IMG/VR virus record: IMGVR_UViG_3300020446_000004
Span: 1-64,000 of that record
DNA: 64,000 bases
Origin: a virus
Direction: 5' to 3' (one strand)
Of this stretch, positions 11,882 to 13,047 are shown piece by piece. The first letter of the stretch is position 1; each line of letters opens with the position of its first letter. The notes under the pieces are model-generated. The model saw only the letters and a program-made list of their open reading frames with translations. It was not told where the DNA came from and ran no database searches. A program made the translations under genes and the position numbers.

Positions 11882-11900
11882 GTTTTACTTACAAAATATT

Positions 11901-11928
11901 AAATAGGCCCTACGGGGCCTATTTTTTT
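11901..11928 (+). terminator. Rho-independent terminator after the major capsid gene
   Basis: AAATAGGCCC-TACG-GGGCCTATTT followed by a T run. Confidence 0.9.
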
Positions 11929-11943
11929 GACTAAATATTTGTA

Positions 11944-11987
11944 CGTTCATCCTACGGGACGGAAGTAGCATTATGCGAAGGAACGCA
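11944..11987 (+). promoter_or_regulatory. Glutamine riboswitch class I (glnA RNA motif) candidate
   Basis: CGTTC-A-TCC(TACG)GGA-C-GGAAGTA-GCA(TTA)TGC-GAAG-GAACG-C reproduces the three-stem glnA architecture: P1 CGUU..AACG, E-loop GGAAGUA...GAAG. It lies upstream of an RBS and a short ORF. Confidence 0.8.
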
Positions 11988-12011
11988 CTCAACTGTAAAA
12001 AGGAGAGTGAT

Positions 12012-12164
12012 ATGAACTACAGAGACTTCGAACTTGCTCGCAAAAAAGAGCGTACTAGATTAAGTCATTTAGCAATAATACGCAAACTTATCAAAGAACG
12101 CCAATCTAGACCACGTTGCGAGAAGAATATCTTGAGTAATGATCCAAGATTGCAAAAAATATAA
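12012..12164 (+). CDS. 50-aa basic peptide downstream of the glutamine riboswitch
   Basis: AGGAGA RBS at 12001-12006 and ATG at 12012. The track start at 11973 lies inside the riboswitch. Sequence MNYRDFELARKKERTRLSHLAIIRKLIKERQSRPR... Confidence 0.65.
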   Translation: MNYRDFELARKKERTRLSHLAIIRKLIKERQSRPRCEKNILSNDPRLQKI

Positions 12165-12183
12165 CATTTTGGTAAAAAAAAGG

Positions 12184-12212
12184 TTGACATTAGTAATTTA
12201 ATTTGCTATAGT
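12184..12212 (+). promoter_or_regulatory. Sigma70-type (early) promoter
   Basis: TTGACA-17 nt-TATAGT with extended -10 TG. Confidence 0.8.
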
Positions 12213-12218
12213 GTATAC

Positions 12219-12474
12219 ATAAGCTAAAAACTTGTAGCTAGAGTTTTTATATAGTGCAAGGAAGAGGCGTTTACCAGAGCGTCGAACTTGGCAAGTTAGG
12301 GGTGGTACCCAGGCATGGTTGTAGAAATACGTTGTGTCACATCGCTCTCCCGAGCGGAACTTGGCTCCCTGGCTTTGAGAATGGTATCTCGGTCGAGGGG
12401 TTGGAGGTATAACCTAGTCCTCCCTATTTTGCTTATTCTATTTTAGGTATACAAGGCAACTTGTATACCTTTTT
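12219..12474 (+). ncRNA. Unknown structured ncRNA (about 250 nt) with its own promoter and terminator
   Basis: No ORF. GC-rich core 12256-12432 with many short helices (GGCGTT/AGCGTC, AACTT/AAGTT, GGGT/ACCC, GTA-GAAA-TAC, CGCTC/GAGCG, GAGA/TCTC, GGAGG/CCTCC), bounded by a consensus promoter and a terminator. Confidence 0.65.
12445..12474 (+). terminator. Rho-independent terminator
   Basis: AGGTATACAAG-GCAA-CTTGTATACCT-TTTT, a perfect 11-bp stem. Confidence 0.85.
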
Positions 12475-12483
12475 CCTTTTGTG

Positions 12484-12580
12484 ATAAATACATACGTCAG
12501 ATAGTGTGCCGCAAGGCGGACTTATGCTGTGACCCACAGCGTAGCCCATAGAACGGGCATCGGACTTCTATAAAGGAGAA
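12484..12580 (+). promoter_or_regulatory. Late promoter plus structured 5' leader (four-way junction candidate)
   Basis: ATAAATA, then GTCAGAT/ATCGGAC enclosing GCC-GCAA-GGC, TATGCTGTG/CACAGCGTA and GCCC/GGGC hairpins just before the AAGGAGA RBS. Confidence 0.5.
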
Positions 12581-12585
12581 AACAA

Positions 12586-13047
12586 ATGGGAAGACCACTT
12601 AATAAAAGATTATTCGGAGTTGCAGGTGTAGGTCCTACAGCGGCCGGTAACGAAATCAAAGTAAACTTTCATAACGGCTCAGGTGTTAAAGAAGGTTATA
12701 TCGTAAAACAGCTAGGATCAAAAAAATTCCGTTGTGAAGAAATTGAAACAGCTGGTACATTTGATTGTACACTAAAAACTGGGATACTGCCTGCAAACTT
12801 ATCAGCAGGTGAAATGGCAATTTCATTCAAAATGGATGACGGCGAAACTTACGGTGTAAGTAAAATTTCAGGACGTAAAGCAACATTAGCAAAACCAAGT
12901 AATACTGGCTCTAATGCATTTGACGGAAAGTCTGTTGCATGGAACTTTGCAACATCTACTTCAGATGGTGCCGCACAAGTTGAAGAAGCTGGTGACGATA
13001 ATACATTATCAGGTACTGACGATGATGATTTCACAGAAGACGCATAA
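12586..13047 (+). CDS. Hypothetical virion structural protein
   Basis: 153-aa ORF with strong RBS and late promoter; paralogous to the next ORF. Confidence 0.75.
   Translation: MGRPLNKRLFGVAGVGPTAAGNEIKVNFHNGSGVKEGYIVKQLGSKKFRCEEIETAGTFDCTLKTGILPANLSAGEMAISFKMDDGETYGVSKISGRKATLAKPSNTGSNAFDGKSVAWNFATSTSDGAAQVEEAGDDNTLSGTDDDDFTEDA

Follow-up and report, generated by a model that had tools for sequence, protein, structure and literature searches.

We were interested in a short piece of phage DNA that raises a simple question: which RNA does a virus transcribe when it places a promoter and a terminator of their own around some 250 nucleotides in the middle of its structural genes, and is this RNA a product in itself or the leader of the genes behind it? 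The locus lies in a window of 64,000 nt, by which we mean the whole stretch of DNA that was analyzed (positions 1 to 64,000 of IMG/VR record IMGVR_UViG_3300020446_000004). An initial annotation, made by reading the sequence alone, had described it as a stand-alone noncoding RNA (ncRNA) of unknown class, driven by an early promoter and embedded in the late structural region.

The embedding is as described, the RNA being located between the gene of a gp23-like capsid protein and further structural genes. On its 5′ side, we find homologs of the T4 gp20 portal, the gp21 protease and the gp23 capsid protein, together with a scaffold-like protein. The capsid protein has its closest counterparts in jumbo phages, including PA5oct, Vibrio phage 2.275.O, Rak2-like phages and Phosso, with 66 to 70% identity. 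The full IMG/VR record comprises 78.6 kb and is rated 22% complete, which suggests a whole genome of roughly 350 kb. The source of the window is a fragment of a T4-like marine jumbo phage. Several very long open reading frames (ORFs), of 1264 to 2346 aa, are found 3′ of the RNA island.

The region around the RNA is rich in small elements (Table 1). Just past the terminator of the capsid gene (region 11942-12164) sits a glutamine riboswitch aptamer, followed by a 50-aa basic ORF rich in Arg and Lys, whose likely start, the ATG at 12013, stands behind AAGGAG. This pair of aptamer and basic ORF recurs in many relatives, and Methylophilales phage Melnitz has a similar aptamer at a site annotated as "SsrA". 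On the other side of the RNA, a motif resembling T4 late promoters precedes a freshwater-2 leader and a gene of 153 aa. The ATAAATAC core of this motif has six copies on the + strand (at 484, 6800, 12484, 15371, 19907 and 60947), all of them at gene boundaries before ORF starts, with a total ATAAATAC count that is not above chance; the placement of these copies fits a putative T4-type late promoter motif of the phage.

The two signals that delimit the RNA, claimed from the start as a near-consensus sigma-70 promoter and a perfect terminator, both stand up to closer inspection. The promoter scores 11/12, making it the top site in the 7 kb scanned, and a search of the 64-kb window for TTGAC-N14-16-TGNTATANT returned this promoter as its sole match, against a chance expectation of 0.08. 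In T4-like phages, near-consensus sigma-70 promoters with a TG extension are of the early type. Transcription is predicted to begin at ∼12219, about 7 nt past the −10 hexamer. At the other end, the perfect 11-bp stem of the terminator (12445-12470) runs into the T run TTTTTCCTTTT, and the predicted RNA from start to terminator measures ∼258 nt. As a side note, the 5′ arm of the terminator in the window shares an AGGUAUA heptamer with the P9 hairpin of the RNA, which we take as chance because the sharing is absent where relatives use other terminator types.

Table 1. Features of the manA locus and its immediate surroundings, in positions of the 64,000-nt window.
Feature	Position	Strand	Details
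Glutamine riboswitch aptamer (RF01739)	11942..11989	+	50.7 bits vs cut-off 35
Sigma-70-type promoter	12184..12212	+	TTGACA (12184-12189), 17-nt spacer, TATAGT (12207-12212), extended −10 TG at 12204-12205
Closing stem, 5′ strand (AUAAGC)	12219..12224	+	Starts at predicted first transcribed base; outside Rfam model
manA-class RNA core	12227..12433	+	P1 hairpin, pseudoknot, P2/P3, four-way junction (P4-P7), P8, P9
Self-complementary hexamer UAGCUA	12235..12240	+	In 9-nt P1 loop; candidate loop-loop contact between two copies
Pseudoknot, 5′ strand (UAUAG)	12250..12254	+	Rfam match, pairing survey
GAAA tetraloop capping P6	12324..12327	+	From the fold
Pseudoknot, 3′ strand (CUAUU)	12424..12428	+	Pairing survey
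Closing stem, 3′ strand (GCUUAU)	12431..12436	+	Pairs with 12219-12224
Intrinsic terminator	12445..12480	+	Perfect 11-bp stem 12445-12470, GCAA loop, T-rich tail
Late-promoter-like motif GATAAATAC	12483..12491	+	Resembles T4 late promoter; would serve downstream gene
Freshwater-2 RNA leader (RF02980)	12505..12588	+	76 bits vs cut-off 49.9; ends at ATG of 153-aa gene

Is the transcript noncoding? The statement that promoter and terminator enclose no ORF needs qualification: two ORFs can be called mechanically within the unit, one of 52 aa (12254-12412, + strand, GTG start) and one of 43 aa. It holds in the sense that no ORF is conserved: of 22 homologs, 19 have stops or frameshifts within the 52-aa frame. 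One might still argue that the 52-aa ORF, present as it is on the + strand, yields the real product, or that the fold of the RNA is incidental; given the interrupted frame, a GTG start that lacks a ribosome-binding site, and helix substitutions that are compensatory (see below), we regard the chance of this as negligible. ARAGORN found neither tRNA nor tmRNA in the window, in line with what had been judged by eye.

As to which RNA this is, the class is in fact a known one. The stretch from 12227 to 12433 aligns with the Rfam model of the manA RNA (RF01745) over its entire length (model positions 1 to 192 of 192) at 54.7 bits and an E value of 4.5e-13. This is 0.5 bit short of the RF01745 gathering score of 55.2 bits; the match is seen with E-value reporting, and a search at gathering thresholds returns only the two neighbors, the glutamine riboswitch and freshwater-2. 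An Rfam scan had been proposed in the initial annotation, with a known family as the outcome that would remove the novelty, and despite the missing half bit that is in substance what the scan gives. The homologs speak the same language. Gathered from IMG/VR at the same genomic position, which was located by means of the capsid gene on one side and the 153-aa gene on the other, 15 of the 28 related records searched gave a manA match (36.6 to 64 bits), and 11 of these 15 lie over the 55.2-bit cut-off (55.5 to 64 bits). Among isolated phages, a blastn search with the RNA itself found only Pelagibacter phage Mosig, whose manA copy scores 64 bits; the canonical cyanophage copies in P-SSM4 and P-SSM2 reach 184 and 182 bits. 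Taking together the full-length match, the scores of the homologs, and the covariation and pseudoknot described below, we are therefore highly confident that the flanked stretch is a true, if divergent, manA RNA.

Comparison with the manA motif as first described (RF01745, PMC2864571) supports this placement and at the same time brings out what is different here. The same helices are present, that is, P1, the pseudoknot, the multi-stem junction, P8 and P9, and so are the conserved junction bases UAGUGC and GGAA. The carriers are again marine T4-like phages, and, as in P-SSM4 and P-SSM2, a consensus sigma-70 promoter immediately precedes the RNA. Different from the motif are the score, at or below the gathering cut-off rather than the 181 to 184 bits of the P-SSM2 and P-SSM4 copies; the carrier, a jumbo phage and not a cyanophage; the strong terminator, instead of a gene, directly 3′ of the RNA; an extra closing stem formed by the first bases of the transcript; and an enlarged, palindromic P1 loop in place of a GACG tetraloop. 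The 2010 description covers cyanophages, two gamma-proteobacteria and marine metagenomes, and jumbo phages are absent from it (PMC2864571). With respect to the family's habitat, the homologs of gp20, gp21 and gp23 adjoin the RNA, and the sequencing runs that hold the stretch are marine metagenomes. The Rfam type of RF01745, Cis-reg by virtue of a 5′ UTR location, does not describe the locus, where the RNA has a strong terminator behind it; the mismatch is one of context and does not concern the RNA itself. What is new, then, is the stand-alone arrangement and the jumbo-phage group, the RNA class having been known before.

The slot also accommodates a second manA subtype, which again matches the full model, at 38 to 50 bits, so that Rfam annotation would miss it. 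In this subtype, GCUGUAGUGGC replaces GGGGUGGUACCC, and the P1 loop reads GACG. It is present in loci L004, L005, L014, L017, L046, L063 and others, ∼22 of them distinct, and fills the same slot in the closest relatives of the window, whose flanking proteins are 94 to 96% identical.

The minimum free energy of the RNA, −83.4 kcal/mol, corresponds to z = −2.46 against shuffles. Taken alone, this z-score is modest, and it is covariation that provides the real structural support. We projected the Rfam structure, via the row of the window, onto 23 sequences aligned with plain MAFFT, without fitting to any structure. Standard pairs filled 83.7% of the cells, as compared to 39 to 54% when the 3′ partners were slid by 1 to 3 columns. 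Changes on both sides were seen in 34 of the 55 pairs, and none of 500 shuffles reached the observed values. Covariation among homologs, put forward initially as a check on the RNA, is thus clearly present. The outer stem of P8 aligned poorly in this analysis (40.6% paired).

The ends of the molecule are held together in two ways. The predicted first transcribed bases form a closing stem of 6 to 9 bp in most subtype-1 relatives, with compensated variants in Mosig (AAUGC/GCAUU) and in the group of locus L143. Ends paired in this manner are usual for stable free RNAs. Further in, the pseudoknot forms at least four contiguous pairs in 44 of 44 distinct RNAs and occurs as five duplex types of 5 bp or more. 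Since the 2010 drawing of manA labels this element "pseudoknot?" (PMC2864571), our analysis confirms a feature that was left questionable then. The closing stem of the initial annotation, GCAAGG paired with TTTTGC, was a different one and had to be given up: GUGCAAGG is an invariant junction sequence, subtype-2 RNAs possess no UUGC partner for it, and the real closures are AUAAGC/GCUUAU and the pseudoknot (12250-12254 with 12424-12428). The same annotation was right about two smaller elements. The GAAA tetraloop is where it had been placed, and nearly all relatives carry a GNRA loop (GAAA or GAGA) at the P6 position; the GGAGG..CCTCC arm near the 3′ end forms as well, 12403-12407 pairing with 12419-12423.

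Next to the fold, it is the layout of the locus that has been kept among relatives. We surveyed 49 distinct elements for which the full flanks were available. All but two of them (47/49) have a promoter scoring at least 10/12, and the TG extension (TGn) is found in 48 of 49. The distance between promoter and RNA is fixed, which puts the start 5 to 8 nt ahead of P1 in subtype-1 RNAs and at P1 itself in those of subtype 2. Of the 49 elements, 46 have a hairpin with a T run behind it, located within ∼45 nt of the core in 43 cases, and 41 go on to ATAAATA, the motif seen in the window as the late-promoter-like GATAAATAC. These terminators are built from at least 12 unrelated stem sequences; therefore, it is the function at this position that is conserved, not the sequence. 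The description of the locus as a stand-alone, sigma-70-driven noncoding unit thus applies to a layout that is conserved in 49 distinct relatives.

What follows the unit is less constant. Most relatives have the freshwater-2 leader and the 153-aa gene, but a 356-aa ORF takes this place in locus L126 and a 578-aa ORF in L038, and L026 to L028 have a small ORF there that is equipped with a sigma-70 promoter itself; in Mosig, a rubrerythrin gene follows the manA RNA with no terminator in between. Freshwater-2 was detected in 97 related loci (nhmmer) and is far more constant than the manA unit. A literature search under the name "freshwater-2" returned no relevant paper.

The unit itself comes and goes. 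A manA-like element is present in 77 of 163 related loci; other loci have tRNA genes or unrelated ORFs in the manA slot. In some relatives (L031:2700-2990), what appear to be three tRNA genes stand in for the manA unit, after the capsid gene and ahead of the freshwater-2 leader, and this slot is a hot spot for small cargo. In locus L020, window positions 11933-12464 are cleanly absent, from which we conclude that the block comes and goes as a unit. At L020:1729-1739, the capsid terminator is joined directly to the tail of the manA terminator; the glutamine riboswitch with its ORF and the manA unit are therefore both absent and make up a single indel of ∼530 nt.

Such behavior is the signature of a moron cassette, here in the form of an independent RNA gene. 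Morons, known from lambdoid phages, are self-contained units of promoter, gene and terminator that are inserted in late operons. The manA unit resembles them in having its own sigma-70 promoter and terminator, in lying between late structural genes, and in being present or absent between close relatives; it differs in that its cargo is a structured RNA rather than a protein gene.

How does this agree with the cis-regulatory role under which manA is filed? Weinberg et al. (2010) placed manA among the cis-regulatory motifs and thought it likely to be a riboswitch, given its intricate, conserved fold and its location ahead of genes that are not homologous to one another; their cis-regulatory call was based on position only, with neither a terminator nor a Shine-Dalgarno overlap on record (PMC2864571). 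With nearly all phage genes on one strand, a position upstream of genes is a weak criterion. In P-SSM4 and P-SSM2, manA lies directly behind a perfect TTGACA-17-TATAAT promoter, with the RNA starting approximately at the first transcribed base, and a promoter of the same type stands ahead of the Mosig copy. Indeed, the link to a promoter was found in every copy examined, both canonical cyanophage copies included. The 3′ sides are different. In P-SSM2, 16 nt separate the end of the manA RNA from the next coding sequence; here as in Mosig, a protein gene comes directly after the RNA and no terminator intervenes, and the manA RNA of P-SSM4 likewise lacks a strong terminator behind it. The immediate terminator is a feature specific to the jumbo-phage lineage, and a leader role exists elsewhere in the manA family, where it could also be the ancestral state.

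Two further observations concern P-SSM4. Its manA RNA is followed (L170:1060-1120) by ATAAATA, a hairpin and CGTTCATCC, in this order. Since CGTTCATCC resembles the beginning of a glutamine riboswitch, elements of these two kinds may be neighbors in cyanophages, too. In addition, a 57-aa "hypothetical protein", PSSM4_169.1, is annotated over the manA RNA of this phage.

For the jumbo-phage locus, the riboswitch reading would have manA as a ligand-binding aptamer and the terminator as the expression platform that controls, depending on ligand binding, whether transcripts reach the 153-aa gene and the structural genes after it. In a transcriptional riboswitch, the aptamer classically stands ahead of a terminator, and both the rating of 2010 (PMC2864571) and the coding sequences directly behind manA in P-SSM2 and Mosig point the same way. 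However, a switch of this kind should have an alternative pairing for its terminator. We therefore cut the transcript before the 3′ arm of the terminator and calculated how much energy upstream pairing would bring to the 5′ arm. It brought 0 to −3.4 kcal/mol, set against terminator hairpins worth −8 to −18 kcal/mol in the same representatives, and in 12 of the 13 this was no better than the gain of shuffled arms, L100 being the one exception; no antiterminator pairing is thus detectable. Moreover, the terminator stems are unrelated in sequence and lie outside the conserved fold, the downstream gene has a late-promoter-like motif and a leader of its own, the genes that come next differ among relatives, some of them equipped with a further sigma-70 promoter, and the original call was purely positional. 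The literature searched contains no report of a manA ligand; riboswitch reviews and the yjdF paper leave manA unmentioned. We consider a riboswitch at this locus unlikely.

A nascent RNA can also act on the polymerase that makes it. In the put system of phage HK022, the order is promoter, RNA, terminator, genes, and the manA locus has the same order. By this account, the nascent manA RNA would modify its own polymerase, and transcripts begun at this promoter, but no others, would then pass the terminator and reach the downstream genes early in infection. A start at the first transcribed base in all cases examined, including P-SSM4 and P-SSM2, would suit such a processive antitermination mechanism, as would the strong terminator directly after the RNA in the jumbo-phage lineage. 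The likeness to put and to the Bacillus EAR element, however, goes no further than a promoter-proximal structured RNA with terminators and genes behind it. The manA unit shows neither sequence nor structure similarity to either and no such Rfam match; with ∼200 nt and a four-way junction, it is much larger than put; and it comes without evidence of read-through. The downstream late genes own a promoter motif, and other manA RNAs form RNA-only multimers when free, which points to a free RNA. Processive antitermination thus strikes us as very improbable here.

By contrast to both accounts, a self-contained transcript, which we consider quite probable, agrees with the promoter and terminator of the unit, the lack of an antiterminator, the motif and leader that the downstream gene has for itself, and the varying neighbors, so that the RNA itself would be the product.

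If so, what might a free manA RNA do? The roles put forward in the initial annotation, namely those of a protein sponge, an anti-defence decoy or a guide or scaffold RNA, are conjectural. A recent cryo-EM study found that several manA RNAs form 8-, 10- and 60-mers in vitro, the 60-mer being an icosahedral shell and all assemblies being built from pentamers (Ren et al. 2026, bioRxiv 10.64898/2026.07.01.735769). The molecules are held together by L5-L7′, L8-L9′ or L3-L8′ kissing loops, plus an L6-P6′ contact between GNRA loop and receptor; no biological role is given, and manA is still referred to as a putative cis-regulatory element (bioRxiv 10.64898/2026.07.01.735769). The RNA of the window belongs to the same family and, by our own P1-P9 numbering on the Rfam helices, on which any match to the loop labels of the preprint rests, it has L3, L5, L7, L8, L9 and a GNRA loop L6. 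Under this numbering, L3 contains UACCA (12272-12276), complementary to UGGUA in L5 (12303-12307) and L8 (12382-12386), and L6 is the GAAA loop (12324-12327). None of the solved RNAs has the sequence of the window. The UACCA and UGGUA loops are invariant in the lineage and hence show no covariation, and the L3/L8 and L5/L7 loops in general are either invariant or changed without a change in the partner; covariation can therefore not separate contacts between molecules from contacts within one. As judged from their sequences, the UACCA/UGGUA and GNRA features could make multimer contacts and could equally well act within one molecule.

The P1 loop offers a contact of another kind, one that is not among the interfaces of the preprint. 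Canonical and subtype-2 RNAs have a GACG or GAUA tetraloop here. Of 22 distinct subtype-1 RNAs, 19 have instead a loop of 7 to 9 nt with a self-complementary stretch of 6 nt, which a random 9-nt loop of the same composition would contain in ∼5% of cases. The palindromes read UAAUUA, UAGCUA and UAAUUG (with wobble ends), and the swap between GC and AU in the center keeps the palindrome intact. Adjacent bases cannot pair within one loop, and the palindrome, with about one compensated event to its credit, thus suggests that one copy of the RNA contacts another. Whether such contacts add up to a multimer in vivo is a matter of judgment; from the comparison with the solved RNAs, we consider it a realistic prospect that falls somewhat short of being probable.

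We also compared four RNA runs from four studies over positions 11890-12700 at the level of assembled contigs. The contigs are 88 to 95% alike to the window and so represent relatives, and short contigs pile up on the conserved manA core. Some of the contigs include the promoter, for which DNA carry-over or upstream read-through is a possible source, so that these assembled data cannot be read for start, end, strand or level.

With the assignment to manA, its fold and a conserved unit of promoter, RNA and terminator in hand, a free noncoding manA RNA gene of an uncultured marine T4-like jumbo phage is probably the best explanation of the locus as a whole. We envision that the host's sigma-70 polymerase would start at ∼12219 from the TG-extended promoter and stop at the terminator (12445-12480), releasing a discrete RNA of the predicted length. 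This RNA would fold into the manA core with P1, pseudoknot, four-way junction, P8 and P9; the six bases at its 5′ end would pair just after the pseudoknot, which would tuck in the ends, and the terminator hairpin would cap the 3′ end. Made early and in abundance, the free RNA may then act in trans as a multi-copy particle, a step that we infer because other manA RNAs form 8-, 10- and 60-mers in vitro. Candidate contacts for such a particle would be loop 1 with its self-complementary stretch, pairing of UACCA with UGGUA loops, and the GNRA loop.

For the manA family, an orphan riboswitch candidate since 2010 that Rfam files as cis-regulatory, the locus and its 49 distinct relatives add a whole lineage in which the unit is bare and shows neither an attached gene nor switch pairing. 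That a bare unit of promoter, RNA and terminator is found across a lineage argues that the RNA itself is the product. The family now extends to jumbo phages, where it is mostly missed at the Rfam threshold, and even the canonical cyanophage copies begin exactly at consensus early promoters. It is tempting to speculate, and we offer this as a tentative idea with the odds against it, that manA-class RNAs are not switches but early trans-acting RNA genes whose product self-assembles in the infected cell, by way of the L1 palindrome, kissing loops and a GNRA contact, into an RNA-only particle that would sequester or scaffold a host factor or metabolite. If this were true, the bare cassette of the jumbo phages, appearing and disappearing in the manner of a moron, would show more cleanly than any other natural case that function resides in the RNA alone.
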